Assembly: GCA_963809535.1 (NCBI GenBank)
Contig: CAWEJW010000001.1
Span: 617,354 to 681,353, forward strand
DNA from: an uncultured Actinomycetes bacterium
Lineage (GTDB): Bacteria; Actinomycetota; Coriobacteriia; Anaerosomatales; CAVRZR01
DNA length: 64,000 nucleotides
Direction of reading: 5' to 3'
Under the pieces are notes generated by a model. That model was not told where the DNA came from. It did no database searches and saw only the letters and a program-made list of their open reading frames with translations. This document shows, one piece after another, positions 24,961-63,027 of this stretch; position 1 is the stretch's first letter; the number at the start of each line of letters is the position of its first letter. The position numbers and the translations under genes were made by a program.

Positions 24961-27900
24961 ATGGGGAAGGCTCGACACGCGCTGAGTCGCTGGCAGCTTG
25001 CACCCGCGGACGCTTCGGCCGTACACAGGCTCGCATCAGCGGTCGGTCTGTCCGAGATCACGGCGCGAGTCCTCGTCGGCCGCGGGATGACCGATCCCGA
25101 GACTGCCGAGCGCTTCCTTTCGCCCGATCTTGAGCGTGACTGGCTCGACCCGTCCCTGATCCCGGGCATGTCCGAGGCTGCCGACCGGGTTGCCCAAGCC
25201 GCCGGCTCGCACGAACGCGTCGTGGTCTTCGGCGACTTCGACCTGGACGGGATCGCGTCGGCTGCGCTTACCGCTCTCGGCCTGCGGGCCATGGGTGCGG
25301 ACGTCCGGGCAATCGTGCCGCACCGATTCCGGGAGGGGTACGGCCTATCACCGGCTGCGCTTACGCGCGTGTTCGCCGCCCATCCCGACCTCGTCGTCAC
25401 CGTCGATTGCGGAATCTCGGCCAGAGCCGAGGTCGCGGTGCTGGCAGCGCGGGGAGTCGCATGCGTCGTCACCGACCATCACGAACCCGGCCGGGACCTG
25501 CCTCCAGACATTCCGGTTGCGAACCCCAAACTCGACCCCGCTTGTCCATCGCACGCCCTTGCGGGCGCGGGCGTCGCTCTGAAGCTCGTGCAGGCGGTCG
25601 GCGAGCGCCTCGGCTTCCCGGACGTGTGGCGTGACCTTGTGGACCTCGCCACCCTGGGGACGGTCGCGGACATCGTCCCCCTCACGGGCGAGAACCGCGC
25701 GCTCGTCTCGGCCGGCCTTCGAGCGATGAGCGCCGCGCCGCGGCTCGGCATCGCAGCTCTCGCCTCCGCGGCCGGCATCTCACTCGAGTCACTCGATGCC
25801 GACAACATCGCGTTCGCGCTGGCGCCCCGCCTCAACGCGCCGGGGCGCATGGGCGATCCCGACGACGCCCTTCAGCTGCTCCTCACTGACGATTCGGTCC
25901 TCGCCGAGCAACTCGCGCTTTCCCTGGACGAGCAGAACCGCGCGCGCCAGACCAGCGAGCAGGACCTGACCGAGGCGGCGCTCGCCCAAGCGGAGAGGGT
26001 CTACGCAGGTGAGCGGGCGCTCGTGCTGGCCGGGGAAGGCTGGCACGAGGGCGTGAAGGGCATCGTTGCGTCCCGCGTCGCCGCGGAGTACGGGGTCCCG
26101 ACCCTGCTCTTCACCATCGAGGACGGTGAGGCCCGAGGCTCTGGGCGGACGGCGGGCTCCGTCGACCTCTTCCGCGCGCTGTCGGACGCGAGTTCGTGCC
26201 TCACGCGCTATGGAGGTCATGCGGCAGCCGTGGGATGCGCGCTTCCCCAGGGATCGCTCGACCAGTTCCGGCGCGACTTGCTGGAGGTGCTCGACGCGCT
26301 CCCAGCAGAGGAGCTGGCCGTCGAGTTGCGCTACGACGCCGACATCGCTCTGGAGGACGTGGGTCTGGAGCTCGCGGCCGAGCTCGAACGGTTGGCGCCA
26401 TACGGTTCGGGAAACCCCAAACCGATCCTCGCCACCCGGTCGGTCTTCATGAATGGGCGGCAGCGAGTGGGTCGGACCGGCAGTCACCTGCGCTTCATGG
26501 CGTTCGATGGCGGAGCGTCCGTGCCGGCGATCGCCTTCAGATGTCGAGACATCGAAGAAGTCGTCGCCAAGGACGGTCCCATGGACATCGCGTTCGAGAT
26601 CGCGGCCGACGAATGGCGCGGTCGCCGACGCGTCCAGCTCCTGGTGCGCGACATGAAGGACTCGTCGGTCGCGGGCGGTGTCGAGGAGCCCCTCACCTCG
26701 ATCGGCATACTCATCGAGGACCTCTTCGAGCGCGCCGACGAGATCATCGCCCGTGAGGAATACGCCGGTATCGGCGACGCCGAGTCCTTCCACACGAAGC
26801 TGGCTGGCGTCACCTTCGAAGGGCGACAGGACGTTCTGGCCCGGCTGGCGCTGGGTACCCCTTTGCGTCTGGAGCGCCAGCCCTCGAATGAGCACGACAC
26901 GAACGCGATCGCTCTCTTCGATCCATTCGGGGACCAGGTAGGCTTCTTCAACCGAAGACTCTCGGCAGCGCTCGCGCCGGTCATCGACTCCGGAACCACC
27001 TACGACGTTGAAGTCACGGACGTGACCGGGGGGGACGAAGGCCGCAGCCTCGGCGTGAACGTCTTGGTGAGCCAGCGGGGAGCGAGCCAGGCAGCCGAGG
27101 CCTTCGCCGAGCTACGGGCACAGCGGCGGGCCAAACTCGCGGCCATGCCGGCGTCAGAGTTGGATGCAGAGCTCACGCGCCTCTTCCTCGGCGACAGGCG
27201 GCTCCACGCGGCACAAGCGCGGGCGCTCGCGCATCTTGCGCAAGGTGCGAACACGCTGCTCGTCATGGCAACGGGCCGCGGCAAGTCCGTTGTCTTCCAC
27301 CTCCACGCTGCGCGCTTGGCGCTTCGCGACGCTCGCGCGTCCGTGTTCGTGTACCCGCTTAGGGCGCTCGTATCGGATCAGGCCTTCCACCTCGAGAACA
27401 CGTTCGCCGAAGCGGGATTGGCGGTGCGCACGCTCACAGGGGAGACTTCTCCCGGGGCGCGTGACGAGACGTTCGCGGACCTGACCGAGGGCTCGCTCGA
27501 CGTCGTTCTCACGACACCCGAGTTCCTCGACCACCATGCCGCTCGCTTCGCCGATGCTGCCCGCGTCGGCTTCGTTGTCGTCGATGAAGCCCACCACGTC
27601 GGCATGGCCAGAGCCGGACATCGGCCGGCGTACGCCAGACTCGACCGCGCGCTCGATGCCCTGGGCAACCCTCTCGTGCTTGCGGCGAGCGCCACCGCGG
27701 GGGATGAGACTGCTCGGGCGATACGGTCGGTTTTGGGCATTGACAAGGTCGTCGCGGACCCAACCGTGCGCGACAACCTTCGAATCGAGGACAAGCGAGA
27801 CCACGCCGACAAGGACACGTACATCTGCTCGCTGGCGGCGAGCGGCGAGAAGATGATCGTCTACGTGAACTCGCGTGAGCAGTCAGTGCGCCTCGCGCGC

Positions 27901-28608
27901 ATGTTGCGAAAGCGGGTACCCGGGGTCGCCGCGCGCACGGCCTTCTACAACGGCGGGTTGTCGCGTGAGGCGCGCGCCGCCATCGAGCACGCGTTCCGCA
28001 CCGGCGAGGTCTCGGCTGTCGTCGCCACAAGCGCGTTCGGGGAGGGAGTCAACATCCCCGACATTCGACACGTCGTGCACTTCCATCTGCCCTTTGGGGA
28101 AGTCGAGTTCAACCAGATGTCCGGTCGGGCAGGTCGCGACGGGGCCTCCGCGTCCGTGCACCTTCTCTTCGGGAAGAAGGATGCGCGCATCAATGAGGCC
28201 ATCCTCTCGGCCCTGGCACCTGGGCGAGAGGACCTGGCTGCGCTCTACCTCGTGCTACGCGACGAACAAGCGGCCTCGGGCGGGAGTTTCGAGGTCACGA
28301 ATGCCGAACTCGCCGAGCGGGCGCATCGCCGTCGCAAGCAGTTCGCGCTCGACGAGCGCGGCGTCTCTTCGGCCCTCGGGATCCTCCGCGAGTTGGGGCT
28401 GGTGGACGGGGAGGGGCACGGGTCCTATCGGCGACTCACCCTCCTGCCAGCTCCCGCCGAGAAGCTCGATCTGTCCGACTCAGTGCGCTACGCCGAGGGA
28501 CTCGATGAGATCGCCGAGTTCGGAGAGTTCAAACAGTGGGTGTTCTCGGCTGAACCGGCGTTGTTGCTCGAGCGGTTCAACCGTCCTATCCTGCCAACAC
28601 AGCTCTGA
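24961..28608 (+). CDS. recJ: RecJ exonuclease fused to a HIRAN domain and a RecQ-like DEAH helicase (1215 aa)
   Basis: N-terminus has the DHH family motifs (FGDFDLDG, DHH in VVTDHHEP, DHHA1 region). The middle (about 26788-27075) is HIRAN-like: LAGVTFEGRQD...L.RQPSNEHD.NAI.LF. The C-terminus has helicase motifs I (ATGRGKS), II (VVDEAHHV) and VI (QMSGRAGRDG). Confidence 0.85.
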   Translation: MGKARHALSRWQLAPADASAVHRLASAVGLSEITARVLVGRGMTDPETAERFLSPDLERDWLDPSLIPGMSEAADRVAQAAGSHERVVVFGDFDLDGIASAALTALGLRAMGADVRAIVPHRFREGYGLSPAALTRVFAAHPDLVVTVDCGISARAEVAVLAARGVACVVTDHHEPGRDLPPDIPVANPKLDPACPSHALAGAGVALKLVQAVGERLGFPDVWRDLVDLATLGTVADIVPLTGENRALVSAGLRAMSAAPRLGIAALASAAGISLESLDADNIAFALAPRLNAPGRMGDPDDALQLLLTDDSVLAEQLALSLDEQNRARQTSEQDLTEAALAQAERVYAGERALVLAGEGWHEGVKGIVASRVAAEYGVPTLLFTIEDGEARGSGRTAGSVDLFRALSDASSCLTRYGGHAAAVGCALPQGSLDQFRRDLLEVLDALPAEELAVELRYDADIALEDVGLELAAELERLAPYGSGNPKPILATRSVFMNGRQRVGRTGSHLRFMAFDGGASVPAIAFRCRDIEEVVAKDGPMDIAFEIAADEWRGRRRVQLLVRDMKDSSVAGGVEEPLTSIGILIEDLFERADEIIAREEYAGIGDAESFHTKLAGVTFEGRQDVLARLALGTPLRLERQPSNEHDTNAIALFDPFGDQVGFFNRRLSAALAPVIDSGTTYDVEVTDVTGGDEGRSLGVNVLVSQRGASQAAEAFAELRAQRRAKLAAMPASELDAELTRLFLGDRRLHAAQARALAHLAQGANTLLVMATGRGKSVVFHLHAARLALRDARASVFVYPLRALVSDQAFHLENTFAEAGLAVRTLTGETSPGARDETFADLTEGSLDVVLTTPEFLDHHAARFADAARVGFVVVDEAHHVGMARAGHRPAYARLDRALDALGNPLVLAASATAGDETARAIRSVLGIDKVVADPTVRDNLRIEDKRDHADKDTYICSLAASGEKMIVYVNSREQSVRLARMLRKRVPGVAARTAFYNGGLSREARAAIEHAFRTGEVSAVVATSAFGEGVNIPDIRHVVHFHLPFGEVEFNQMSGRAGRDGASASVHLLFGKKDARINEAILSALAPGREDLAALYLVLRDEQAASGGSFEVTNAELAERAHRRRKQFALDERGVSSALGILRELGLVDGEGHGSYRRLTLLPAPAEKLDLSDSVRYAEGLDEIAEFGEFKQWVFSAEPALLLERFNRPILPTQL

Positions 28609-30860: not shown

Positions 30861-31508
30861 TTGTTCCTGGAGAGGCTCGTGCTCGGCGAGCTGCAGACGA
30901 ACTGCTGGGTGGTCGCCGACGACTCGGACGGCCCCGCGATCGTGATCGACCCCGCAGGTCACCCGTCGGATGCCGAGCGCATCGCACTCGCGGCGGCTCC
31001 CCGCGAGGTCGTTGTGATCGTCTTGACTCACGCGCACTTCGATCATCTGGGCGCTGCGTCCGCACTTCTTGAGGCGACTGGTGCGACGCTCGCAGTGCAC
31101 AGGATCGATGCGTCACGGATCACCTCACCCGCTGCCGGGGGCACCGGGGGCGCGCTGTTCGGTTTCGCGGACGTGGCCCCCCACGCCGACCGACTCCTCG
31201 ACGATGGCTCGCTCGTCGCGGCCGGGGCTTTGGCCCTCGAGGTGTGGTCTACTCCCGGTCATACCGAAGGATCGATCTCGCTTCTCGCTTCCCGCGGCGA
31301 GCACCCGATGCATCTGTTCTCGGGAGACACGCTGTTTGCAGACAGCGTCGGTCGCACCGACTTCCCGGGCGGCGACGCGCGAGCGCTGCAACGATCGATA
31401 GCGCGGATCGCCGCCTTGCCGGATGAAACGGTCGTCCATCCCGGACACGGACCTGACACGACGGTGGGGCGCGAACGGAGGCTCAACGCGTTCTTTCCGA
31501 GGGCGTGA
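30861..31508 (+). CDS. MBL-fold metallo-hydrolase (glyoxalase II-like)
   Basis: THAHFDH motif, TPGHT.GS and GD.LF......R.DFPGG. TTG start directly after the relA stop. Confidence 0.8.
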   Translation: MFLERLVLGELQTNCWVVADDSDGPAIVIDPAGHPSDAERIALAAAPREVVVIVLTHAHFDHLGAASALLEATGATLAVHRIDASRITSPAAGGTGGALFGFADVAPHADRLLDDGSLVAAGALALEVWSTPGHTEGSISLLASRGEHPMHLFSGDTLFADSVGRTDFPGGDARALQRSIARIAALPDETVVHPGHGPDTTVGRERRLNAFFPRA

Positions 31509-33373: not shown

Positions 33374-33439
33374 TTGCGTCTGTGTGCGGCGCATGGGTCC
33401 TCCCATGTCGCGCTGGGTACCGTGATAGGATTCTTGAGG

Positions 33440-34444
33440 ATGACTTCCGGAATGGTGCCGAGGTCGATGGAACCGCAGGACGCAAAGCCAATGTCACGCA
33501 GACGGCGGGGAATCATCCTGGGCGTCGCCGGGGCTGTTCTGGTGTTGCTCGTTCTAGGGGCGGCCGCCTCGTCCCTTCCGTCCGGCTGCTCTTCTGTCTG
33601 TCACCGCGCCCAAGCCAAGACCCTCGCTTCGAGCGATCACAGCAATGTGTCCTGCTACCGTTGCCACCTGGCGCGCGGCGCCTGGAGCTACCCCGGCTTC
33701 ATTGGATCGATCCTGTTTCGCATGAATACTCGTGCGCTCACAGGCTCGGGCTACCACACTGCGGCCGTTCAAACTTCTCGGAGCGCGTGCATCCAGTGTC
33801 ATGAGGGGACATTCGAGCGGACGAGCCAATCCGGCGGGATCCGCATCAAGCACTCGAGCTGCGCACCCGGCCCCACGTGCGACCCATGCCATGCGGCCGT
33901 CGCTCACGGCTCGGCAGTGCGCTGGGACGGCACGTACTCGATGGATGACTGCGTTGCGTGCCACAGGGCGCAGACGGCTCCCACGGCGTGCGACACGTGC
34001 CATACCCAGAAGGCGCGGGCCGCTCGCACGCGCGGGGCGTGGCAGGTCACCCACGGCCCGAACTGGGAGAAGACGCACGGCCTGGGAGATCTGGATACCT
34101 GCAGCACCTGTCACGGTGAGGGGTTCTGCGAGAGGTGCCACAAGGCCCCTGTGCCCCATCCTGAGGACTGGGGCGGCACCCACGGGCAGTACGCGATCGA
34201 GGACCGAGCTTCGTGTGAGACCTGCCACTCCTCCAGCGCCTGGTGCGCCTCCTGCCATGGGACGCAGATGCCTCACCCGAGCGGATTCCTGCAAGAACAC
34301 AGCTCGATCGCCAGCGGCCTGGTCGATCCGGAGTGCACACACTGTCACGACGAGAGCGACTGCGCCACCTGCCACACCTACCACGTGCATCCGGGCGGTG
34401 CCTCTGGTGTCCCCGTGCTCCCAACCGCTACCGATGCCCGATGA
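33440..34444 (+). CDS. membrane-anchored multihaem c-type cytochrome (11 CxxCH + 1 CX3CH), NapC/NirT-like topology
   Basis: An N-terminal RRRR-TM helix (GIILGVAGAVLVLLVLGAAA) is followed at once by CSSVCH. Paired motifs such as CSTCHGEGFCERCH, CETCHSSSAWCASCH and CTHCHDESDCATCH follow. Start ambiguous, 33440-33491. Confidence 0.85.
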   Translation: MTSGMVPRSMEPQDAKPMSRRRRGIILGVAGAVLVLLVLGAAASSLPSGCSSVCHRAQAKTLASSDHSNVSCYRCHLARGAWSYPGFIGSILFRMNTRALTGSGYHTAAVQTSRSACIQCHEGTFERTSQSGGIRIKHSSCAPGPTCDPCHAAVAHGSAVRWDGTYSMDDCVACHRAQTAPTACDTCHTQKARAARTRGAWQVTHGPNWEKTHGLGDLDTCSTCHGEGFCERCHKAPVPHPEDWGGTHGQYAIEDRASCETCHSSSAWCASCHGTQMPHPSGFLQEHSSIASGLVDPECTHCHDESDCATCHTYHVHPGGASGVPVLPTATDAR

Positions 34445-35730
34445 CCGCCCTAGGGCCTGCATCCTCACTCCGGTTATTCGGTCTCACAGTGGGAGGCCTG
34501 GACTTCAATGGTGCCTACAATTCCTTCCTGAAGGCCCTGCGCGAGCCATCGGCGGATCCGACGTTGACGCTGCTCTTTGTTGCGGCTGCGGCGCTACTCG
34601 TCCTGCTCATCGCGTTGGCAGTCGCCATGGTGGCGACGCCGTCTCGCAAGCGGGTCGTGAAGGTCCGCCGATACCGCGGGTCGCCCGAGGAGATCGCGGC
34701 TGCCCGTGCCGCGGTTGCTGCGCGAGCCGCTTCGGCGGCCGATGAAGGCGACCGCGAGGAGAGCCCGGCGAAGCCCGAAAAGGGAGGACCTCGACCGTTC
34801 TGGTCCAGGCCTACGTTCTTCATCGTCGTTGGCGTCGTGATCCTGGCACTGGCCGCCTATGGTGCCACGTCCACCAACGCCTACTGCGCCCGCACGTGTC
34901 ACGGCGGCACGCCCGCGGTGCGTTCGGCGACCAAGGTCGGACATGCCCCGTGCACCTCGTGTCATGAGGACAACGCGATCACCGGGGTCTTCGACAACAC
35001 CGTGGCTCGCGCCGCGATGCTGGCGGGCCAGGCCGCAGGCCGCAGTCCAGATACCCCGAATGTCGCCGCCGAATCGGCGGCTTGCCTGCACTGTCACGAA
35101 GCGGTGAAGACGGGCATCGTCGAGTCGTCGTCCGGGGTCAAGATGTCCCACGCCGAACCTCTGAAAGCCGGGCAGCCCTGCACCAGTTGCCACCCGGACA
35201 CAGGTCACGTGAGTGCGGGATACACCATGGGCATGCCTCCGTGCCTTCCGTGCCACGATGGCAAGACGGCGCCGATCACGTGCAGTCTGTGCCATCGAGG
35301 GGACCCCATGAGTCCAGTCGTGGCCGCTGCCTCAAACGAGGCGTCGGGCGGAGTGAGCTACCCGGCGGTCCGGGCGGCAAACCATGAATGCGGGGGCTGC
35401 CACGATCAAGAGCAGACGTGCGATCCCTGTCACGGCATCCGGATGCCCCATAGCCAGACGTTCATCGAGGGCGGCCATGCGAGATACGCCGCGTGGAACA
35501 ATAAGCAGACCTACTGCTCGCGCTGCCACCAACTTTCCACCTGTGCGGGGAAGTGCCACACGTCGTTCAACGGGCCGACGGGGCACAGCGCTGATTGGGA
35601 GGTCATGCACCAGGACTCTCCATGGGATTCGGGGTGCCCCTGCCACAGCGCGAGAAGCCCGCGTGCCGGCCCGCTGTGCTACCGGTGTCACGATCCGAAG
35701 ACGAAAGAGCTGCTCCCCCTGAGACCCTGA
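34441..35730 (+). CDS. membrane-anchored multihaem c-type cytochrome, paralog of the preceding gene (9 CxxCH + 2 CX3CH + 1 degenerate CPCH)
   Basis: ATGA overlap with the upstream stop. Two TM helices, the second followed at once by CARTCH. Collinear with the upstream paralog (MPPCLPCHDGKTAPITCSLCH versus MDDCVACHRAQTAPTACDTCH). Confidence 0.85.
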   Translation: MTALGPASSLRLFGLTVGGLDFNGAYNSFLKALREPSADPTLTLLFVAAAALLVLLIALAVAMVATPSRKRVVKVRRYRGSPEEIAAARAAVAARAASAADEGDREESPAKPEKGGPRPFWSRPTFFIVVGVVILALAAYGATSTNAYCARTCHGGTPAVRSATKVGHAPCTSCHEDNAITGVFDNTVARAAMLAGQAAGRSPDTPNVAAESAACLHCHEAVKTGIVESSSGVKMSHAEPLKAGQPCTSCHPDTGHVSAGYTMGMPPCLPCHDGKTAPITCSLCHRGDPMSPVVAAASNEASGGVSYPAVRAANHECGGCHDQEQTCDPCHGIRMPHSQTFIEGGHARYAAWNNKQTYCSRCHQLSTCAGKCHTSFNGPTGHSADWEVMHQDSPWDSGCPCHSARSPRAGPLCYRCHDPKTKELLPLRP

Positions 35731-36010: not shown

Positions 36011-37099
36011 TCATTTGCTTTCGGGGATACGCAGGATCTGGATCCGGTTGTTCGTCGTGTCCGCTACGGCAAACCAGTCGCGTTCCTTGTCATAAGCGAT
36101 GCCCGTTGGGTTGTTGAACAGGCCGTCTGTCGCGCCGTAGTCGCCGTACATGGCCGACGTCTGGTCGTGCTCCTTTGCCACTTTGCCGGTTTTGGCATCC
36201 AGCACGATGATCTTGAACTTGAACGCGTCGACAAGCACGATCCTGCCCTTGGCATCCATCGTCATCCCTGTGGGCATCTCGAAGGGATTCTTCGGGTCGG
36301 GTGTGCGCCGAATGTCGACTGTCGAGGAATCCTCGCGATTGGGAGCCGTGCCGGATATCCAGAGCAGGCGGCCGTCTTCTGAGTACGCCTTCACGCGTCG
36401 GTTCTGAGTGTCGGAGACATAGAGGGTGCCATCCGGACCGAGAAGGATCCCGTGCACCACGTCGAACTGCTCCTTGTCGGTCCCGCGGGTGCCGCCAAGC
36501 TGCATCAAGATCTGGTCGTCAGGCGTGAACACCGCGATGCCCTTGGTACTGCCGACGGCGATCTTGCCGTCACGAACGTCGACGACATTCGGCAGCTCCA
36601 CCCGCCATTTGGTCACGAACGTCCCGTCTGGACGGAACTCAAGAACCTGCCCGCCGAAGTCGGCGGTCCATAGATTGCCGTCCTCGTCCACCGAGATCCC
36701 CTCGAGTGAAACGATGCCCTTGGGTTCGATGACCCGCTTGACCGTGCCATTGGGATTGAACCCGACGATGTGGGAGTGTCCAGAGATCGCCCAGATCGTG
36801 CCATCGGGGCCAATGGCGACGTCGGTGGGTGCTTCGAGTTGCTGGTCAGCTTGGGTGCCCCACCCGTAGAGCGACCTGACCCACGTGACTCCGGATGGCA
36901 GCTCGGCCTTCGTCGGAGCTGCTGAGGGACGGGTCAATCTGAGCACGCCGTACGCCACGACGGCGAGAAGCAGCACGAGTACCCCAAGGATAACGGCGAG
37001 CACTCGGCGCTGTCGTCGATTGTCGACGTACTCGACGACGGTTTCGGCGTATTCCCCAGGCTCTTGGATTCCGGGCGTTGTCTCGGGCGTCTCGCTCAT
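36011..37099 (-). CDS. membrane-anchored NHL-repeat beta-propeller protein
   Basis: GGAGGA SD and an N-terminal TM helix (VLAVILGVLVLLLAVVAYGVL). Repeated blades follow: P.GIA..DG.I.V.D..N.RV, e.g. GPDGTLYVSDTQNRRVKAY and FNNPTGIAYDKERDWFAVADTTNNRIQIL. Confidence 0.8.
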   Translation of the reverse strand: MSETPETTPGIQEPGEYAETVVEYVDNRRQRRVLAVILGVLVLLLAVVAYGVLRLTRPSAAPTKAELPSGVTWVRSLYGWGTQADQQLEAPTDVAIGPDGTIWAISGHSHIVGFNPNGTVKRVIEPKGIVSLEGISVDEDGNLWTADFGGQVLEFRPDGTFVTKWRVELPNVVDVRDGKIAVGSTKGIAVFTPDDQILMQLGGTRGTDKEQFDVVHGILLGPDGTLYVSDTQNRRVKAYSEDGRLLWISGTAPNREDSSTVDIRRTPDPKNPFEMPTGMTMDAKGRIVLVDAFKFKIIVLDAKTGKVAKEHDQTSAMYGDYGATDGLFNNPTGIAYDKERDWFAVADTTNNRIQILRIPESK

Positions 37100-37130: not shown

Positions 37131-37907
37131 CTACTTGTCCGTGGCTTCGGCCTTCTTGAGGCCTTCTGTGGCGGAGGCGTCGTCAGGCAGGAACTGCAGC
37201 GCGTACTTGAAATCCTTGGCGGCTGAAGTCTTGTCGCCGGCACCCAACTCGGCCCATCCCCGCAATACGATGATATCGGCCGCCTGCTCGTCCAGCGCCA
37301 GTGCCGCATTGAAGGATTGGATCGCTTCCTTGTACTTCTTCAGGTTCTGCTGTGCAGTGCCTCGCAGCACGAGCAGCCTGATGGTCGTACTGTTGTTCTG
37401 CGCCTCGTCGGGGACACGAATCCCCTTCTGGAGGTTCGCGTTGAACTCCTCTTTCAGCAACGCCTCGTCCTTCAAGAGGTATGCCTGGGAGCGCGCCAAA
37501 GCCTCCGCGTTCCTTCCTTCGAGGATGAGGAGGTGGAGGTCGACGTTGTTGACCTCACGGATGGTCTTGTCGGTGACTTGCGTGCGAGCGCGCACCAGGG
37601 CTTCCTGCGCGCCTTCCTTGTCGCCAACGGCGTACAACGCCTCGGCGTAGTCAGCCCACGCCTGCCCATTGCCAGGGTTCGCTTTGACAGCCGACTCGTT
37701 GGCGGCTCGCACCGACTCAGCCCAGGTACGCGGCGTGGAGCGGAAGAACACCCCCGTCAACAGAGCGTACGCAAGCACGGCCACGATCAGGCAGCCGACG
37801 CCGATGGACGCCCAGAGCAGTATGCGGGATACCCGATCTGGCGAAGACTCGAGAGGTTCTTCCACGTACTCAGGCGTCTCAGAGAATGGCGAGCCACTCA
37901 TTTGCAC
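37131..37907 (-). CDS. membrane-anchored TPR-repeat protein
   Basis: One TM helix (ILLWASIGVGCLIVAVLAYALL), then TPR-like helical repeats (AWADYAEALYAVGDKEGAQEAL; YKEAIQSFNAALALDEQ; AAKDFKYALQFLPDD). Upstream of and co-oriented with the NHL gene. Start is GTG 37907 or ATG 37901. Confidence 0.75.
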   Translation of the reverse strand: MQMSGSPFSETPEYVEEPLESSPDRVSRILLWASIGVGCLIVAVLAYALLTGVFFRSTPRTWAESVRAANESAVKANPGNGQAWADYAEALYAVGDKEGAQEALVRARTQVTDKTIREVNNVDLHLLILEGRNAEALARSQAYLLKDEALLKEEFNANLQKGIRVPDEAQNNSTTIRLLVLRGTAQQNLKKYKEAIQSFNAALALDEQAADIIVLRGWAELGAGDKTSAAKDFKYALQFLPDDASATEGLKKAEATDK

Positions 37908-38153
37908 GACCTCACTTCCCGACGCCTGCCTGCGAGCAGCCGGGCCCCCTGGGTCAGCGGCGTTCCTTCAAGTTCGACGCCTGCCCACTACGTCCTGCCG
38001 TTGTGCCCGGGCCGTCCAGTGCTTTGCGACTCCCGTGCCAGCAACAACGATACTCCCAAAGGCCGTTGGCGGGCATGATATCCATAGAAACTCCTTGGAC
38101 CGGTCTCGCCTGCGTCTTCGGGGGTCTCACATGTTGCTGACCAGCAGAATTGG

Positions 38154-38183
38154 TTGTGGGAAAGGGCGTGGACGCTCTATAAT
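38154..38183 (+). promoter_or_regulatory. candidate promoter of the large cytochrome gene (-35 TTGTGG, 18 nt, -10 TATAAT)
   Basis: TTGTGG at 38154-59 and TATAAT at 38178-83, in the 357-bp divergent region between the TPR and cytochrome genes. Confidence 0.4.
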
Positions 38184-38264: not shown

Positions 38265-40982
38265 GTGAGTCGCATGGGACCGGCGCTATTTGGACGCCAC
38301 TGGGTCGTCGCGGTCTTTCTTCTAGCTGCGGCGGTCTTGGCGTTGGCGCCTTTCGCTGTCGCGGGCGTGTCAGATGTGCCAGCTGACCTCCACGCGGCTG
38401 CGGGCGCGAAGTCGCCCATCGTGGTGAGTCTGTCTTGGGCCGCCCCATCTGGGTCCTCGGTTTCCGGATACCGCGTGTACGTGGCGGAACACGAAGACGG
38501 CCCGTATGATCTGGCGACATCAACGCCCGGCTACTCGTTTGACTACGTTGAAGGGGAATCCGGGTGGCCCTACTACTTCCTAGTCACTTCGGTTGACGCC
38601 GACGGCGTGGAGTCCGCCGCAGCCCAGGCTGGTCCAGTCGCGTCCAAGTGGATCGAGTCGCCACATGGCGCCTTCTCGGAAACCAGCCACAACTGCGAGC
38701 ATTGTCATTCGGTTCACGACGCGGACGGCAATCTTCTGCTCGATATTCTGAGGACGGATGAGGCGTCCGACACCCCAGACCAGTCCAGGGCCTGTTTCCG
38801 ATGTCATGGAGGGCAGTCAGCCGATTCGGCGAACGTCGAGGACGGCTCTCGCGACTCCTTCGCGCTTGCCAGCGGGCATTCCGTCGATGCTTCAGCAAAT
38901 GCCGGCTTGATCAGCGCGTGCTCGAGCTGCCATTGGGTTCACGGCGACTCCGAGGTTCGCCCGATGATCCCAGCATTGACGGTCAATGGACTCTCGGTAG
39001 CATCCAGCGGGCCCGAGCTGTGTTACGCGTGCCACGACGCAAAGAACACTTGGTACGACGGCAACTACCCCTCGCCATCGTCCCCTCCGCGAGACGCCTC
39101 AGGGTACCCGGTGAGCGGAACCTGGATGGGCCCGGCGACCTACAAGGGTGGGTCCAACGCGCACCGGCTCATTCCTGAGACGACGCAGACTGCGGGGTTT
39201 GTGGCGCCCGTCCGTCGTGCGCAGGGAGACTGCCTGTACTGCCACGCGGCCCACAGGGGCTCGAACAAGTACGACTCCCTCTTGACGACCTTCACCCCGT
39301 CGACCACGTCATCGCTGGCCTCGGATCAGAGGCACGGCACCTACGCGGCGCTATGTCTCGACTGTCACGGTGGATCCGTGCCGAGCGGCTTCGAGACGGC
39401 GCCGACGGATATCGCGCAGTTCGTCACCACGTCGACAGCAGACGCCACGTCGGGCCATCGAATCAAGACAGCCGGCGGGACCCTCCCCGTAGGGGCGCCG
39501 CTGCCCTGCTATGAGTGTCACAACCCCCACGGATCGACTCGCGGGAATGCGAGCATGCTCTCCGATGTCGTGGGCGGGAGTCTTGAGACGAGTAGCGACG
39601 CCGGAGTGCGGCATTTCTGCTTCAGCTGCCATACGACCTCCGACACGGTTCGCGGGTGGGACAGCGATGAGTCGATCTTCTCTCCGGTCGGAGAAACCGA
39701 CTCCGTTGTCGGGATTGCGCGGACCGGAGGCGTGCTTCGGCTGCCGCCTCTGGCGGCTCACTCCCAGGCGAGTGCCACTTCGTGCTATGCGTGTCATGGC
39801 TCCGACTATCGCACCGGCGGCAGCAATGTCCACAACCCGGGTCTTGGCGGCTACGACCCCGAGGCGCACACCTCGACGGTAACCACCGCGACGATCACGA
39901 TCCTCGGGACGCCTTACACGGACCGCGCATGCGCAGACTGCCATGTTCTCGAGCTGGGCCCGCTCCACATGCCTCCAGCCGACTGCGCAGACTGCCACGA
40001 CACGCTCGTGCCGATCCCCGGCGGCTGGGACAAGGGCTGCGTCCAGGCAGGTTGTCATCCGGCAGGCTCACCGCTCGAGATCCATGTCGACATCGACGCC
40101 TCACACATGCGCTCGGCGGAGCCTACGGCCGCCGACACCTGCTTCGTCTCCGAGTGCCACACGGGCGGTGGTAGCCTCGCGGACATCCACGCGAACAAGC
40201 AGAGCTGCGACACGTGCCACAGCTTGGACAGAGCGCCGACCGGCAACTGCGAAGCGAGCGGCTGCCATGATTTGGGCAAACCACACGAAGATCTGACGAT
40301 CGCCCACACGTCGAGCGGTGGCACCGACTTCGTCTCGGTCGGGATCCAGGACAGGCGCCACGGCTACTACGACGGCGTGACCGCAAACTGCTCGGATTGC
40401 CACATCACAAGCCTGATCCCGCTGCACTCGGGCGATTGTCAGACGTGCCACACGAGCTCCGTGAGCGAAGCCGTCAAGGACGCTATCGCGAACGACGACA
40501 CGAACTGCACGTCGTGCCACCCGGGCCACCACAGCGGAGATATCGACGCTCACTACAGCGTGGTCAGCGACGGCTGCCACAAGTGCCACAACGCGGATCC
40601 CTATGTGGACTCGTCCAACGTCACCTGCACGGGATGCCACACGCCACCCAACAGGGAGACGTTCGTCAACCCTGAGCGCATCACTGGGACCATCCGCCTT
40701 GTCTTTGGCGACTGCGATGTGAGTGGCAGCGCTCCGCCTGAGCATTCATATGCCGTGTGGACGGTGCGGAGTGGCGGGGCAGACGGGCCGGTTGTGGCTT
40801 CTGGCGGGGGCTTCGACGGCAGCGGGTGGGATGGCATCGATGATGTCATGGTCTTCGCACAGCCACAGCCATATCACGTCTACATCGAGTGGTACGACAG
40901 GGAGTCGGACAACTCGGGGGAGAGCTTCTTCTCTCAGGTAGACGTGACCACGTCAGGCCAGCTCGCAACGTTGCACTACTAG
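38265..40982 (+). CDS. large exported multihaem c-type cytochrome with N-terminal FN3-like domain (17 CxxCH + 3 CX4CH; 905 aa)
   Basis: Signal/anchor HWVVAVFLLAAAVLALAPFAVAG. FN3-like segment (SLSWAAPSGSSVSGYRVYV...YYFLVTSVDADGVES). Then 17 CxxCH motifs plus CVQAGCH, CFVSECH and CEASGCH, and a haem-free beta-rich C-terminal ~100 aa. Confidence 0.85.
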   Translation: MSRMGPALFGRHWVVAVFLLAAAVLALAPFAVAGVSDVPADLHAAAGAKSPIVVSLSWAAPSGSSVSGYRVYVAEHEDGPYDLATSTPGYSFDYVEGESGWPYYFLVTSVDADGVESAAAQAGPVASKWIESPHGAFSETSHNCEHCHSVHDADGNLLLDILRTDEASDTPDQSRACFRCHGGQSADSANVEDGSRDSFALASGHSVDASANAGLISACSSCHWVHGDSEVRPMIPALTVNGLSVASSGPELCYACHDAKNTWYDGNYPSPSSPPRDASGYPVSGTWMGPATYKGGSNAHRLIPETTQTAGFVAPVRRAQGDCLYCHAAHRGSNKYDSLLTTFTPSTTSSLASDQRHGTYAALCLDCHGGSVPSGFETAPTDIAQFVTTSTADATSGHRIKTAGGTLPVGAPLPCYECHNPHGSTRGNASMLSDVVGGSLETSSDAGVRHFCFSCHTTSDTVRGWDSDESIFSPVGETDSVVGIARTGGVLRLPPLAAHSQASATSCYACHGSDYRTGGSNVHNPGLGGYDPEAHTSTVTTATITILGTPYTDRACADCHVLELGPLHMPPADCADCHDTLVPIPGGWDKGCVQAGCHPAGSPLEIHVDIDASHMRSAEPTAADTCFVSECHTGGGSLADIHANKQSCDTCHSLDRAPTGNCEASGCHDLGKPHEDLTIAHTSSGGTDFVSVGIQDRRHGYYDGVTANCSDCHITSLIPLHSGDCQTCHTSSVSEAVKDAIANDDTNCTSCHPGHHSGDIDAHYSVVSDGCHKCHNADPYVDSSNVTCTGCHTPPNRETFVNPERITGTIRLVFGDCDVSGSAPPEHSYAVWTVRSGGADGPVVASGGGFDGSGWDGIDDVMVFAQPQPYHVYIEWYDRESDNSGESFFSQVDVTTSGQLATLHY

Positions 40983-41143
40983 CTGGCGCGCCGGGCGGAC
41001 AGTCAACTCCGGTACACCTTGCTCGCTTCGCGGGTTGCCTTCCGGATGCGCTGCAGTGCATCCGAGGTATCAGCTCTCAACACTGCCTTTGCTTCGGTGC
41101 GCTAGAGTATGAAACCGCATCGAGCCCTGGATCGGGAGTGTGG

Positions 41144-42424
41144 ATGGACGCTCGCGCACCCAAAGGCACCACCGACTTGCTCCCCGATGTCGCTCGCGCT
41201 TGGGAGTACATGGTGCGCGTCGCGCAGGACCTCTTCGCGCGCTACGGATACGAGCCGATCTACTCGCCGCTCTTTGAGCACACCGACGTGTTCACTCGCG
41301 GCATCGGTGAAGCGACCGATATCGTGACCAAGGAAATGTACACGTTCGACGATCGAGCCGGTCGTAGCCTCACACTGCGTCCCGAGGGCACCGCGAGCAT
41401 CGTTCGAGCGGCGCTCGAGCACACGCTCGTGCCGCAGGGCTCATTCGCGAAGCTCTACTACGCCGGGCCCATGTTCCGCTACGAACGCCCTCAGAAGGGG
41501 CGGATGCGTCAGTTCTGGCAGATCGGCGTCGAGGTTCTCGGGGCGGCCGAATCAAGCGCCGATGCGGAGATCATCGCGGTCCTCGTTCGCTACTTCGAGG
41601 CCTTGTCGATCCCGCGTGCGCGGATGCGGCTTCTCCTCAACTCCATGGGAGATGAGGTCTGCAGGCCCTCCTACCGCGAGACGGTGGCTACCTACATCCG
41701 CGCCCACTCCGCTGACCTGTGTGCAGAGTGCAACCGCCGTGCAGGAACGAATCCCTTGCGCGCGTTCGACTGCAAGGTCCCTGGCTGCCAAGAAGTCATG
41801 TCCGACGCACCGCTCCTGCGAGATTGCCTGTGTTCTGAATGTGCGGAGCACTATGTGGAGGTCAAGCGCTACCTGGATGACCTCGGCATCGCCTACGAGG
41901 AGGATCCGAGGCTCGTGCGGGGCTTGGACTACTACACGCGCACCGTGTTCGAGATCCAGGCGGAGGGTCTGGGGTCGCAGAACGCGATCGGCGGGGGAGG
42001 ACGCTACGACCGGCTCATGGAGGAGTACGGAGGCCCGGCGACGCCGGGACTGGGATGGGCTCTGGGCTTCGAGCGCACACTGCTGGCTCTGCAGGCCGCC
42101 GGCGTCGCGATCCCTGCGCCACCACGTGCAGACGTCTACGTTGCGTGCGCCGACCCCTTGTTGAGAGAGACGGTCTTCCGCTTGACACAGGACTTGCGCG
42201 ACGCTGGCATCTCAGCCGAGATGGATCACCAGGCTCGCAGCTTGAAGGGGCAGCTCAAACAGGCTGACAGACTGTCGGCGCCTCACGTGCTCATCGTCGG
42301 TCCCGAGGAACTCGCAGACGGGGAGGTCACGCTGCGCGACATGCGCACCAAGGGCCAGACGCGCGTGCGAGTCGCGGACGTGGTCGTTCATATGCGCTCG
42401 TTGCTCGACGGAGAACCTGACTGA
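41144..42424 (+). CDS. hisS: histidine--tRNA ligase
   Basis: Motifs PKGT.D.LP, Y.GPMFRYERPQKGR.RQF.Q.G.E, GGGRYD and an anticodon-binding C-terminus. TAGAGT at 41103-08 and GGGAG SD upstream. Confidence 0.95.
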   Translation: MDARAPKGTTDLLPDVARAWEYMVRVAQDLFARYGYEPIYSPLFEHTDVFTRGIGEATDIVTKEMYTFDDRAGRSLTLRPEGTASIVRAALEHTLVPQGSFAKLYYAGPMFRYERPQKGRMRQFWQIGVEVLGAAESSADAEIIAVLVRYFEALSIPRARMRLLLNSMGDEVCRPSYRETVATYIRAHSADLCAECNRRAGTNPLRAFDCKVPGCQEVMSDAPLLRDCLCSECAEHYVEVKRYLDDLGIAYEEDPRLVRGLDYYTRTVFEIQAEGLGSQNAIGGGGRYDRLMEEYGGPATPGLGWALGFERTLLALQAAGVAIPAPPRADVYVACADPLLRETVFRLTQDLRDAGISAEMDHQARSLKGQLKQADRLSAPHVLIVGPEELADGEVTLRDMRTKGQTRVRVADVVVHMRSLLDGEPD

Positions 42425-44240: not shown

Positions 44241-44538
44241 TGCGGTAGCGACCGCGGGTGCGGCCAGCGCCCGTGGCGTGGCCCCTGCGTCGTGTGCGTT
44301 GTGGGGGTCAGAAAGAGAGGGTAGACTCAAGACAGGCTTCGCCTTGCTGGTGACTCCGGCACATACGGTCGAACCAACACTTCTGACACGGGAGCCTCAT
44401 CATCCCGCGGTGGACAGGTATCCCGGCGACGGGAAGCTGGAAGCCGATGGTGCGGGCACCCACCTGCCGAGGCAGGTTCACCGCGTCGGGGACACAGCAA
44501 GGCGAGGCACACCTGTTCACAGCAGTGGAGGCAGCAGA

Positions 44539-45162
44539 ATGCGCAGCAGATTCGTAGCAGTGGCCCTGGTACTCGCCATTGGCCTGGCAACGTTCCTTCT
44601 CGTCGGCTGCGGTGGCAGCAACGCAGAGGAGCCGGCGACCACCGACACGACCGCGCAGACGGCCGTCACGCCAGCAGCTCCCGCGAGTGCGGCAGTCGCT
44701 CCCGTGGTGGATCGCTCTCCTGCGGAGGAGGTCGTCTACGAGCCATTCCCGACAGATCCTCAGATCACCCCCAAGCCGGTACTCCAGCTCCTCGAGGCGA
44801 AGCAGCCGATGATCGTCTACTTCTATGACACGACCCAGAAGACGTCGAATGACGAGAAGGAAGGCGTCGACGGGGAGGGTGGTCTGGACTTGATCATGTC
44901 CGACTACCGTGGCGCGATCGATCTCGTGTCTTTTGACGTGGGCAAGTTCGTGAAGACCAGCTCCACTGGCAAGATCACTGTCGACCCCGCCTTTTCCGAC
45001 AGCGCGTCGGGCAAACAGACCGCGTCTCTGGCTGCCGAACTCGGTGTCGACTTCACGCCCTATGTCGTCATTGTGGATGGCGACGGCTACATCATCGCGC
45101 GGTTCCGAGGCTGGGAAGACACCGAGAACATCGAGCGCGAGGTTCTGCGCGCCACCAGCTAG
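44539..45162 (+). CDS. lipoprotein, possibly thioredoxin-fold
   Basis: GGAGG SD before the internal ATG. Lipobox LLVGCGG, an Ala/Pro/Thr linker, then a domain ending ...TPYVVIVDGDGYIIARFRGW. Confidence 0.6.
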   Translation: MRSRFVAVALVLAIGLATFLLVGCGGSNAEEPATTDTTAQTAVTPAAPASAAVAPVVDRSPAEEVVYEPFPTDPQITPKPVLQLLEAKQPMIVYFYDTTQKTSNDEKEGVDGEGGLDLIMSDYRGAIDLVSFDVGKFVKTSSTGKITVDPAFSDSASGKQTASLAAELGVDFTPYVVIVDGDGYIIARFRGWEDTENIEREVLRATS

Positions 45163-46614: not shown

Positions 46615-46971
46615 GTGACCCCGGCCCTGACCGTGGTTCTCCTGCTCAGCGGCATCGCACTATGTGCGACGGGCATATGGGCCCTGGTACGCGTCGGACT
46701 CGCGTCGAAGTCCGTGCAGCTTCTCGCGGACGACCTCGAGGAGCGCATCATCCCTCTCGCCGAGAAGGCCGACGTGACGGTCGACGCCATGAACGCCGAG
46801 CTGCTGCGGGCCGACATGATCATCACGCAGGTCGAGGACGTGTCCGAGCGGGTCTCCTCCGCATCAAGCGCCGTCGCCACGATCGTGAGCGCGCCCATGG
46901 GAGCGGTGAGCGGCCTGAGCGAGCGACTGCGCAGGGCGATATCTTCGGGTAAGAAGGCGCGCGAGCAGTAG
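46615..46971 (+). CDS. DUF948-like membrane-anchored coiled-coil protein
   Basis: An N-terminal TM helix followed by a helical region with the layout typical of DUF948. Confidence 0.6.
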   Translation: MTPALTVVLLLSGIALCATGIWALVRVGLASKSVQLLADDLEERIIPLAEKADVTVDAMNAELLRADMIITQVEDVSERVSSASSAVATIVSAPMGAVSGLSERLRRAISSGKKAREQ

Positions 46972-47008
46972 TATGGCGGCCGCAGAACGGCCCCTATCGG
47001 AGGCAATC

Positions 47009-47410
47009 ATGTCTACAGACCACATCACGCTGACCGTGCCGGCGAAGGACGAATACGCCAAGACCGCGCGCATGACGGCAGCGGCCCTCGTCAGCCGCAT
47101 GGACATCCCGTACGACGATCTGGACGACGTGAAGACGGCCACAGAGGAGGCCTTCATCTACGCGTGCGACGCCGAACCCGCTTCCGGAGAGGTCACGCTG
47201 CATTTCTACGTCGATGACGAGTCACTGCGGATCGAGGTGCCTATCGCCCCGGGCTCGCGGACGTGGAGCGAGGATGCGGACAGACGCAGCGCTCTTGCGA
47301 CCTTCATCCTGCAGGGAGTCTGCGACACCTACGAGATGTCTTCCGACGAGTCGGGCGCATGGCTCCGCCTGTCCAAGCGTTTCGGCCCGGTGAGCGTGGA
47401 TGCCGGCTAG
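47009..47410 (+). CDS. putative anti-sigma regulatory factor (RsbW/SpoIIAB-like fold, degenerate)
   Basis: GGAGG SD. Size and position (directly upstream of and overlapping the SigB/F-type sigma gene) fit, as does the pattern L.VPA..EY....R......V......P.DDLDD.K.A..EA. No clear ATP-binding N/G boxes. Confidence 0.45.
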   Translation: MSTDHITLTVPAKDEYAKTARMTAAALVSRMDIPYDDLDDVKTATEEAFIYACDAEPASGEVTLHFYVDDESLRIEVPIAPGSRTWSEDADRRSALATFILQGVCDTYEMSSDESGAWLRLSKRFGPVSVDAG

Positions 47411-48182
47411 GGGCAAACAGCCGCAGACCCGCAAGCTCTCCTGGGACAAGGTCTACACCAGGGAGCTCTTTCGTCGCTATCGACTGGAAGGAGACGAAGC
47501 GGCTCGCGACGAGCTCATCACCATGTACCTGAACCTGGTGAAGTACCTCGCAAGCCGGTTCAGGAATCGCGGAGAGCCGGTCGACGACCTCGTTCAGGTG
47601 GGGACGATCGGCCTCATCAAGGCGATCGACCGTTTCGACATCGAGCGGCAGGTCGAGTTCACGACGTACGCGACCCCGACCATCGTCGGCGAACTCAAGC
47701 GGTACTTCCGGGACAAGGGATGGGCGATCAAGGTCCCGCGGCGACTACAGGAACTCTCGTTCAAGGTGAACCAGGCAGTGGACGCGCTCACGCAGCAGAA
47801 CCAACGGTCGCCCAGCATCGAGGAGATTGCCAGGTACCTCGGGGTCACGACCGAGGACGTCCTCGAGGCGATGGAGACGTCGGAGGCGTACAACTTCGTG
47901 TCGCTGGAAAGCGACAGGGGCTCGGACGGCTCCGACACGTTCAGCATCCTCGAATACATCGGCAAAGACGACGCGCTCATGGCGGTCGTCGACGATCGGA
48001 CCACACTCTCATTCGCGCTGAAGCAGCTCACGCCACAAGAGCAACGCGTCCTGTACTTGCGCTTCTTCGAGGGTCTGACGCAGACAGAGATCGCCCATCA
48101 GCTAGAGATCTCGCAGATGCAGGTTTCCCGTTTGTTGCGCAGGACGCTGCGCACCCTGCGTGAGCACGTGGTGAAGGAGTAG
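47400..48182 (+). CDS. SigB/SigF/SigG-subfamily RNA polymerase sigma factor
   Basis: Motifs DDLVQVGTIGLIKAIDRFD, F.TYA.PTI.GE.KRYFRD..W...VPRR.QEL and QTEIA..L.ISQMQVSRL. Confidence 0.85.
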   Translation: MPARGKQPQTRKLSWDKVYTRELFRRYRLEGDEAARDELITMYLNLVKYLASRFRNRGEPVDDLVQVGTIGLIKAIDRFDIERQVEFTTYATPTIVGELKRYFRDKGWAIKVPRRLQELSFKVNQAVDALTQQNQRSPSIEEIARYLGVTTEDVLEAMETSEAYNFVSLESDRGSDGSDTFSILEYIGKDDALMAVVDDRTTLSFALKQLTPQEQRVLYLRFFEGLTQTEIAHQLEISQMQVSRLLRRTLRTLREHVVKE

Positions 48183-59206: not shown

Positions 59207-59335
59207 GAGTCTCTGAGTGCGCGTTGTGCCTGAATCACCATCGTGAGAGTATGAATCCGCGTGTCGCCCGACAGGGGAGAGTCGTGCGGCCGACTTGGTG
59301 CTACCCGACGGGCGAATGCGGAGGAGCTTGAATCA

Positions 59336-62855: not shown

Positions 62856-63027
62856 CCTGCGCCCGAGGCGCAGCCCGTCAGTCCACTGAACTCGCCCTTC
62901 CTTCGCCGTGCTTCATTCGGACTGTAATGCTCGCTGACGCGAACGCCGATGAGAGAGTTGGCGCCGCACGCGTTGGGCGCGGCCGTGCTTGGCGCACGTG
63001 CGGGCACGTTCTCTGAAGGGGCAGCGG

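Follow-up and report, generated by a model that had tools for sequence, protein, structure and literature searches.

An FN3-containing cytochrome with 20 haem motifs as a candidate long-range element of extracellular electron transfer in a Coriobacteriia-type bacterium

To our knowledge, OcwA of Thermincola is the only case in which the passage of electrons across a Gram-positive wall has been described in structural detail. OcwA (TherJR_2595 of Thermincola potens; PDB 6I5B) is a nine-haem terminal reductase at the cell surface of a Gram-positive host, in which two haems are five-coordinate and one is His/Met-ligated, with nitrite and hydroxylamine being reduced at the two haems of open coordination. 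The present report concerns a gene for a multihaem c-type cytochrome with 20 haem motifs, which lies within a 64,000-nucleotide stretch of DNA (the window) from an uncultured member of the Coriobacteriia, order Anaerosomatales (assembly GCA_963809535.1, contig CAWEJW010000001.1, positions 617,354 to 681,353 of the forward strand). The protein resembles OcwA in being a predicted exported multihaem cytochrome of a monoderm bacterium, in possessing a conserved nine-haem unit and in its presumed role past the wall. However, no sequence relationship with OcwA was detected at E<=10 with a profile of the core, its structural model lacks the OcwA three-helix bundle, and its conserved histidines would suffice for bis-His ligation of every haem. 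In addition, it carries an FN3 domain, 11 more haem motifs and a terminal beta-sandwich.

Several other described systems share individual features with this locus. The MtrC, OmcA and MtrF cytochromes of Shewanella would have the same role of extracellular conduit, and the Pfam model of MtrC-MtrF domain II/IV matches amino acids (aa) 145-261 of the protein above its cut-off (38.4 bits vs 30 bits). There is also a weak match to MtrA (6r2q), but the MtrA/DmsE model TIGR03508 gives only 19.8 bits against a cut-off of 192.2 bits. Moreover, the cytochrome differs from the Mtr systems in having no porin partner or outer membrane and in its overall architecture. Polymers of c3- and c7-type modules, such as the flavocytochrome c3 of Shewanella, the 16-haem HmcA and the dodecahaem GSU1996 of Geobacter, resemble the distal part of the protein (the extension) in their spacing of ~25 aa per haem and in the mixing of Cx4CH with CxxCH motifs. 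Nevertheless, the matches to them are partial and below or near threshold, the extension follows on from an unrelated core with nine haems, and its boundaries are not resolved by the structural model. Multihaem cytochromes are encoded beside NHL and TPR proteins here, as in the electron-transfer clusters of Tenderia (Uet), D. ferrophilus (DFE_0448-0465) and G. metallireducens (Gmet_0556); those clusters, in contrast, belong to diderm organisms with porins and periplasmic carriers, whereas the present lineage is Gram-positive and its proteins have single N-terminal anchors. The biocathode bacterium EMTCatB1 has a positional orthologue, 1c0260, which lies between gloB/MBL (metallo-beta-lactamase; 1c0261) and hisS (1c0255) and corresponds to locus L053 of our survey (PMC7943316). 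This gene encodes a member of the same family with 41% identity in the core and occupies the same relA-MBL/hisS position, although neither an FN3 domain nor an extension was detected in it by tblastn.

Haem motifs, domains and family

The open reading frame (ORF) contains exactly 17 CxxCH and three Cx4CH motifs, the latter at aa 592, 626 and 662, and 40 of its 41 cysteines lie inside these 20 motifs. Scores above the gathering cut-off were obtained for four Pfam cytochrome families, comprising the MtrC-MtrF domain mentioned above together with Paired_CXXCH_1 (53.0 bits vs 20.6), Cytochrome_C7 (46.1 bits vs 24.8) and Cytochrom_c3_2 (30.2 bits vs 25). By its motifs and by hidden Markov model (HMM) scores above curated cut-offs, the product is a multihaem c-type cytochrome. 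An initial annotation, made from the DNA letters and their translated ORFs, had described a 905-aa exported cytochrome with 17 CxxCH and three Cx4CH motifs and had proposed the Paired_CXXCH_1 search as a check. The exact counts, the score in that search and the single N-terminal hydrophobic segment bear this description out. All four of the CxxCHxxH examples that it quoted are present, and 22-24 of the 24 long homologues retain their additional histidines (aa 151, 226, 330 and 422). Translation from an alternative ATG at 38274 would give a 902-aa product, which is 100% identical to a database protein (P0001) in NCBI/ENA; two further close orthologues have 87% and 80% identity. A GAGGG sequence can be read directly 7 nt 5' of the GTG start, and the G+C content at third codon positions is 0.77 on the coding strand, as in the neighbouring genes.

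Residues 1-33 form the only hydrophobic segment of the protein, with no second anchor, and their sequence pattern suggests a cleavable Sec signal that would be cut after AVA. Neither a lipobox cysteine nor an LPxTG motif was found when these were looked for in the protein. The mature part is strongly acidic (104 Asp+Glu vs 40 Lys+Arg) and has only 11 lysines. Site conservation was assessed in 24 homologues covering the extension (35-50% identity, plus two orthologues), and at any given one of the 20 sites between 15 and 24 of these have a haem motif. Together with the Pfam scores, this places the motif array well outside what chance would produce. This conservation of all sites lends indirect support to the attachment of haem at each of them. 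Twenty histidines outside the motifs are also conserved, ten in the core and ten in the extension. With one candidate distal His per haem across the 20 motifs, electron transfer is indicated rather than catalysis, and the conservation of these residues suggests that all 20 haems are bis-His-ligated, low-spin and of the electron-transfer type.

The region between the signal and the first haem motifs had been described initially as an FN3-like module. AlphaFold2 predicts a seven-strand FN3 fold for this segment with a confidence (predicted local distance difference test, pLDDT) of about 95, and a Foldseek search of the PDB with the segment returned FN3 structures almost exclusively among its top 50 matches, with target-normalised TM-scores of up to 0.80. 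The family profile likewise matches FN3 structures, including titin (7.5e-23) and the Fn3-like protein 3mpc of C. thermocellum (3.7e-9). The Pfam fn3 model (PF00041), run on the isolated query segment, gives 18.7 bits (E=0.002), below its 25-bit cut-off; several homologues have a precomputed PF00041 match. The predicted fold thus identifies the segment as a true FN3 domain despite the sub-threshold Pfam score, and the agreement of model, Foldseek and profile upholds the early suggestion. Homologue searching retrieved 160 proteins, of which the best 120 were listed and the 119 non-self proteins were used for architecture counts. In 63 of these 119, an FN3 domain is joined directly to the core (gap about 0).

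The nine-haem core that follows is highly conserved. In an alignment of 112 sequences, its nine CxxCH motifs are invariant or nearly so, as are ten further histidines, which include those of the four CxxCHxxH sites. The haem motifs are spaced at 45 aa per haem, and the pLDDT is about 85-95. Against all PDB sequences, the core sequence alone gave no significant match and the whole protein matched by its FN3 domain only. A core profile built from 16 sequences gave short local matches, namely to OmcE (7tfs; E=4e-5) over ~40 residues centred on a haem motif, to MtrA (7.6e-3) and to NrfA (0.014, about 45 residues), while OcwA was absent from the PDB matches at E<=10. The protein contains no CxxCK motif, and the confident part of the AlphaFold2 model has neither long helices nor a C-terminal three-helix bundle. 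Homology with OcwA or NrfA was rejected, since OcwA does not appear at that threshold and the NrfA match is confined to E=0.014 over ~45 residues. By these sequence comparisons, no relative of solved structure is detectable for the core, and the combination of FN3 with the nine-haem core is new as a family.

Beyond the core, eleven motifs are packed into 275 residues, a spacing of 25 aa per haem, and ten conserved candidate distal histidines are available for these eleven haems. In class III cytochromes c3, Cx4CH motifs are mixed with CxxCH motifs and a variable loop occurs at one haem site. A comparable variation is seen among homologues of the present extension. At site 626, Cx4CH is found in most homologues and CxxCH ending on the same CH in the rest; at site 662, the homologues other than the two closest orthologues have CxxCH or an expanded insert; and sites 748 and 771, which are CxxCH here, are Cx4CH in many homologues. 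Including site 592, the two spacings are interchanged at five sites in all. Such a swap at homologous positions suggests that these are real haem sites, each being a single site with a variable loop. The initial annotation had made the case for the Cx4CH sites depend in part on their conservation, and as they are conserved as haem sites in the homologues, they appear to be genuine.

The affinity of the extension is with c3- and c7-type proteins. The extension alone had no significant match among all PDB sequences. The family profile gave a weak match of the core/extension junction and extension to the tetrahaem domain of flavocytochrome c3 (7.9e-6), and a weak match of the extension to Hmc/16-haem cytochromes (about 5e-4); Cytochrome_C7 on the extension segment alone scored 18.3 bits, below its 24.8-bit cut-off. 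The distal block therefore looks like tetrahaem modules of the c3/c7 type at the level of sequence profiles. The alternation of Cx4CH and CxxCH is also a point of likeness to the Geobacter family GSu_C4xC__C2xCH, and a resemblance to that repeat architecture had been proposed at the outset. This was not sustained. The family (PF09698/TIGR01904) was absent from the Pfam matches of the full-length protein (E<=1) and of aa 536-802 (E<=10) and from the NCBIfam matches (E<=1), and the swapping of spacings leaves no fixed repeat unit.

The protein ends in a haem-free domain of about 100 residues. As first described from its beta-rich sequence, it contains no haem motif, and AlphaFold2 with a 42-sequence alignment predicts an all-beta fold of seven strands (pLDDT 95.1). 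No Pfam or NCBIfam model covers this domain, and a word-indexed homologue search with the domain alone found nothing. An exhaustive HMMER search of 1.84 billion representative proteins detected 53 carriers, and a later profile search with the domain returned short fragments only. The domain is situated at the extreme C-terminus in 47 of the 53, with Tyr as the last residue in 42 of these 47. Among the carriers, 24 are at least 450 aa long; all except one of these are multihaem proteins (23/24, with 5-27 motifs), and only three of the 23 have the actinobacterial core. The architectures combine the domain with c7/c3 modules and with Big_13, PKD or MopE-like domains, on contigs of 46-67% G+C (loci L083-L097; proteins P0123-P0173). 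A metagenome scan with a 7-sequence subset alignment identified no conserved neighbour gene of the carriers. Foldseek found no significant match for the domain in the PDB, the nearest folds being prealbumin/Ole e 1-like and CBM41/CBM20-like sandwiches with TM-scores of 0.4-0.56. On the basis of these searches, the domain is a recurrent, undescribed, cytochrome-associated terminal module and is new as a family. Purely as a hypothesis, it might bind wall polymer, mineral or a partner. In other carriers, an Ig-like module containing the motif FWSEDWSGNVE often stands before it.

For the purposes of this analysis, the family was defined by a nine-haem core (nine invariant CxxCH motifs, ten invariant distal histidines, ~400 aa) that usually follows an FN3 domain, and the present protein has these features and 35-60% identity to other members. 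Exactly nine motifs, in proteins of about 500-600 aa, are found in 50 of the 119 homologues, and the others have up to 30; two copies of the core, giving 23 motifs, are present in 10. The C-terminal additions to the core are anything from 0 to about 1,040 residues long, with Big_13, fn3 and other Ig-like domains among them. All of the named homologues among the best 120 of 160 come from metagenome-assembled genomes (MAGs) of Actinomycetes/Coriobacteriia and are called "cytochrome c3 family protein". A scan of contigs from one genome per species gave 96 confirmed loci, and the 80 that were listed are all from Coriobacteriia/Actinomycetota MAGs, including Anaerosomatales and EMTCatB1, or from mislabelled "Eubacteriales"; the best species-representative match to the protein has 60% identity. 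In these sequence surveys, the family thus appears only in Coriobacteriia/Actinomycetota MAGs. The title "uncultured Eubacteriales" is attached to L001-L003, L006, L014, L016, L017, L022, L026, L034, L042, L061 and L062. In L001-L003 and L022, relA and MBL match those of the window about as well as do the genes of Coriobacteriia MAGs, with the same synteny, and in L001 and L003 the hisS and aspS genes are about 71-72% identical to those of the window, like the loci labelled Coriobacteriia; the "Eubacteriales" label of these loci looks unreliable.

Proposed role in extracellular electron transfer

The preferred reading, for which we estimate a probability of about 0.6, is that the protein is a Sec-exported, soluble or wall-retained cytochrome whose 20 bis-His haems provide a long-range element of extracellular electron transfer in a Coriobacteriia-type host. 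Most likely, it would carry respiratory electrons between the membrane and extracellular minerals or electrodes. Electrons may be fed in from the membrane by the N-terminally anchored 11- and 12-haem cytochromes encoded next door, in which, as in NapC/NirT or CymA, the first haem would adjoin the membrane helix. The Cx3CH motif immediately past the transmembrane helix and a weak NapC/NirT match would fit an entry point at the membrane. Possibly after a relay via the six-haem cytochrome, electrons could then pass along the FN3 domain and nine-haem core, acting as a "base", and through the densely packed, c3/c7-like 11-haem extension. If linear, a chain of 20 haems would be roughly 15-20 nm long, judging from the spacing in solved multihaem proteins. 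The variable far end, with its C-terminal beta-sandwich, might contact the acceptor or donor (an Fe(III) mineral, an electrode or a partner) or retain the protein, and the membrane-anchored NHL propeller and TPR protein may be scaffolds or assembly factors.

This reading draws on what is known of relatives of the host. It is also favoured by the presence of NHL and TPR proteins beside multihaem cytochromes in the other electron-transfer clusters mentioned above, and by the recurrence of the gene set described below. The wall of the cultured Anaerosomatales is Gram-positive, and both of these organisms possess 17-18 multihaem cytochromes; the obligate Fe(III) reducer among them has 17 (PMC9686372). 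In EMTCatB1, expression of 1c0260 reached 333 transcripts per million (TPM) on the closed-circuit biocathode, compared with 94 in open circuit and 44 with BrES (PMC7943316 supplement). A number of observations weigh against the proposed role. The 1c0260 values come from two replicates per condition, and the gene was not singled out by the authors (PMC7943316). Anaerosoma tenue has a similar set of cytochromes but does not reduce Fe(III), nor were quinones detected (PMC9686372). The family is also represented in lineages that are not known to reduce Fe(III). Furthermore, the protein has no wall-binding domain of known type (SLH, LysM, LPxTG), and no cytochrome maturation genes are found within the window. 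Finally, the AlphaFold2 pLDDT of the extension is below 50 and its fold is not resolved by the model.

Chains of bis-His haems are reversible, and the same architecture could serve mainly inward flow, in which a cathode, Fe(II), a mineral or a partner organism would supply the electrons. The TPM of 1c0260 is 3.6- to 7.6-fold higher on the current-consuming biocathode, these being the only expression data for a positional orthologue, and direct electron uptake by the multihaem cytochromes of EMTCatB1 has been proposed by the authors of that study (PMC7943316). However, the order to which the host belongs also holds an obligate Fe(III) reducer, and the sequence of the protein sets no direction, so that a mainly inward role is rather doubtful. 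A different possibility is that the protein is not a wire but a redox enzyme of the wall zone, reducing soluble nitrogen, sulfur or metal species, or a haem capacitor. Nitrite and hydroxylamine reduction by OcwA at its two open-coordination haems provides a precedent, and the weak local NrfA matches of the core profile point in the same direction. Nevertheless, with ten conserved distal histidines for the nine haems of the core and ten for the eleven of the extension, an open haem could hardly be accommodated, and the lack of a CxxCK motif, of an OcwA match at E<=10 and of a three-helix bundle in the model also makes an enzyme or store unlikely.

Still less probable is polymerisation of the protein into a filament like the OmcS, OmcE and OmcZ nanowires, with the FN3 or C-terminal domain either decorating the fibre or serving to nucleate it. 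OmcE is the best match of the core profile to a solved structure, but only a short stretch around a haem motif is matched, and no inter-subunit ligand can be inferred. Known nanowire subunits have 4-8 haems in 230-430 aa, a size that does not agree with the 20 haems in 870 aa of the present protein. Pili-like appendages were seen in cultured relatives only when ferrihydrite was present, among them the thin appendages of Parvivirga (PMC9686372), but at 0.8-0.9 nm wide the latter are too thin for cytochrome filaments.

A broader interpretation can tentatively be put forward, although we regard it as doubtful. The FN3 domain and nine-haem core might form a constant, membrane-proximal "base", specific to Coriobacteriia and related Actinomycetota, which, together with extensions (9 to ~30 motifs, tandem core duplications) and interchangeable tips, would constitute a length-adjustable wire of the Gram-positive envelope. 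The tip of the present protein would then be an undescribed, Tyr-terminated beta-sandwich for docking or retention, common to unrelated multihaem cytochromes of lineages with 46-67% G+C. It is plausible that the protein represents a new architecture among known extracellular multihaem cytochromes of Gram-positive bacteria. The family differs from OcwA, is structurally uncharacterised and is widespread in subsurface and sediment Coriobacteriia, where it occurs in the lineage of an obligate iron reducer and in that of a bacterium dominating a biocathode. With its conserved base, variable tip and 20 predicted bis-His haems in one polypeptide, the protein offers a concrete candidate for crossing the wall; its conserved position between relA-MBL and hisS makes orthologues easy to locate, and the C-terminal domain provides a new handle on the positioning and target binding of extracellular cytochromes.

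Genomic setting and flanking sequences

Table 1. Coordinates within the window of the cytochrome gene, its predicted parts and associated features
Feature	Position	Strand	Remarks
Whole ORF, predicted 20-haem c-type cytochrome precursor	38265..40982	+	905 aa, GTG start; longest ORF of the region
Predicted signal peptide, aa 1-33	38265..38363	+	basic n-region, hydrophobic core, ...FAVA/GVSD
FN3 domain, aa ~37-125	38373..38639	+	identified by AlphaFold2 fold, Foldseek and family profile
Nine-haem core, aa ~126-530	38640..39854	+	CxxCH at 144, 177, 219, 253, 323, 364, 415, 452, 507
Eleven-haem extension, aa ~531-805	39855..40679	+	CxxCH at 556, 574, 648, 709, 725, 748, 771, 788; Cx4CH at 592, 626, 662
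Cx4CH site 1, CVQAGCH, aa 592-598	40038..40058	+	Cx4CH in 15/24 homologues; in the rest CxxCH ending on the same CH
Cx4CH site 2, CFVSECH, aa 626-632	40140..40160	+	haem motif (Cx4CH or CxxCH) in 21/24 homologues
Cx4CH site 3, CEASGCH, aa 662-668	40248..40268	+	Cx4CH in the two closest orthologues only
Haem-free C-terminal beta-sandwich, aa ~806-905	40680..40979	+	AlphaFold2 model; ends ...LHY-COOH
Six-haem exported cytochrome, 514 aa	31763..33307	+	its start, SPH...CxxCHxVH, resembles that of the core; kept in the gene set
12-haem membrane-anchored cytochrome	33374..34444	+	paralogue of the 11-haem gene; first motif Cx3CH just past the transmembrane helix
11-haem membrane-anchored cytochrome	34438..35730	+	first motif Cx3CH just past the transmembrane helix; kept beside family members
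NHL-repeat beta-propeller, N-terminal membrane anchor	36011..37099	-	Pfam NHL 1.4e-18; hydrophobic aa 29-47
TPR protein, N-terminal membrane anchor	37131..37907	-	Pfam TPR families; hydrophobic aa 25-43; divergent from the 20-haem gene
Promoter-like element, TTGTGG-18 nt-TATAAT	38154..38183	+	82 nt 5' of the GTG; read directly
relA-MBL/hisS placement	30870-31508 / 38265-40982 / 41144-42424

The cytochrome genes of the window are preceded, in order, by lgt, pdxS, yebC, ruvB, queA, tgt, secD, secF, a RecJ-helicase fusion, relA and an MBL hydrolase. After the latter come three cytochromes, the NHL and TPR genes and the 20-haem gene, followed by hisS, aspS, a lipoprotein, mgsA, a partner-switching sigma module, alaS, mltG, aroE and pilB-like genes. 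With 20 haem motifs against 12, 11 and 6 in its neighbours, the protein has the most in the cluster. The term "island", which was applied to the cluster in the initial annotation, proved inappropriate, and a foreign island was rejected, since the G+C content of the window is uniform (0.61-0.68) and many Coriobacteriia genomes share the relA-MBL/hisS position. In about 20 other Coriobacteriia-type genomes, a family member is likewise flanked by relA-MBL on one side and hisS-aspS on the other, a presumed respiratory gene within a housekeeping block, at loci that include L001, L003-L005, L027, L030, L035, L036, L043, L044, L053, L073, L075, L077 and L082. The contig of P0005 has the same relA-MBL/hisS-aspS placement, and P0005 is the only other nine-haem member retrieved among the best 120 of 160 that has the C-terminal domain of the present protein.

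The accessory genes also recur together. The set of six genes (TPR, NHL, six-haem cytochrome, two 11/12-haem cytochromes and a nine-haem family member) has the same gene order in L033, L038, L045 and L056, and some ten further loci have part of it. In these four loci, the TPR protein co-occurs with the cytochrome set, and the neighbours of the family members are 42-47% identical to the 12-haem cytochrome. Homologues of the NHL protein with 26-42% identity adjoin family members in at least 12 loci. Both arrangements, the relA-MBL/hisS placement and the gene set, come together in the window. In a rough neighbour-joining tree of core sequences, which carries no support values, the protein groups with the hisS-locus genes, and because of this grouping it may tentatively be regarded as a resident gene, upstream of which the accessory module was inserted. 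For the 11-haem cytochrome, the ORF was listed from 34243 and would overlap the 12-haem gene by ~200 bp; the real start is likely to be the ATG at 34438, which overlaps the stop of the 12-haem gene. Its product scores above the cut-off of Pfam Cytochrome_C7 and has a weak NapC/NirT match. The rare Cx3CH motifs that open the paralogous 12- and 11-haem cytochromes are CSSVCH and CARTCH, respectively.

The 20-haem gene had been credited with a promoter of its own in a 357-bp region divergent from the TPR gene. The gap is indeed 357 bp and the element is present with a perfect -10 hexamer (TATAAT at 38178-38183), but the -35 hexamer matches only three of six consensus bases and a consensus promoter scan did not call the TTGTGG-18-TATAAT element, so that the case for a promoter is weak. 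The same TPR/cytochrome intergenic region contains an 11-nt exact direct repeat, CGACGCCTGCC, at 37920-37930 and 37975-37985, 55 nt apart, which could be a regulator site or due to chance. Downstream, 161 bp separate the stop codon from hisS, whose ATG at 41144 is preceded by GGGAG. A 7-bp inverted repeat without a T-tract can be read directly at 41043-41064, and a terminator scan 3' of the gene gave nothing convincing. A search of the whole window against Rfam returned no match.

Some other genes of the window are of separate interest. At 24961-28608 (+), a complete RecJ (DHH, DHHA1 and RecJ_OB domains), HIRAN and a DEAD/Helicase_C helicase are joined in one ORF of 1,215 aa, an unusual fusion. 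The gene at 44278-45162 (+) encodes a thioredoxin-fold-like protein, which about 12 related loci retain behind aspS; its assignment as a ResA-type reductase of cytochrome maturation was rejected, as it is a lipoprotein (MRSRF..., lipobox LVGC) with no CxxC. The partner-switching module at 46615-48182 (+) consists of an anti-sigma-antagonist-like ORF, an anti-sigma kinase of the HATPase_c_2 type and a sigma factor of the SigF/SigB type. Towards the end of the window, at 57539-59206, 59261-60136, 60171-61862 and 62953-63999 (all +), two PilB-like T2SSE ATPases with MshEN domains flank Roadblock/LC7 and DUF4388 proteins.

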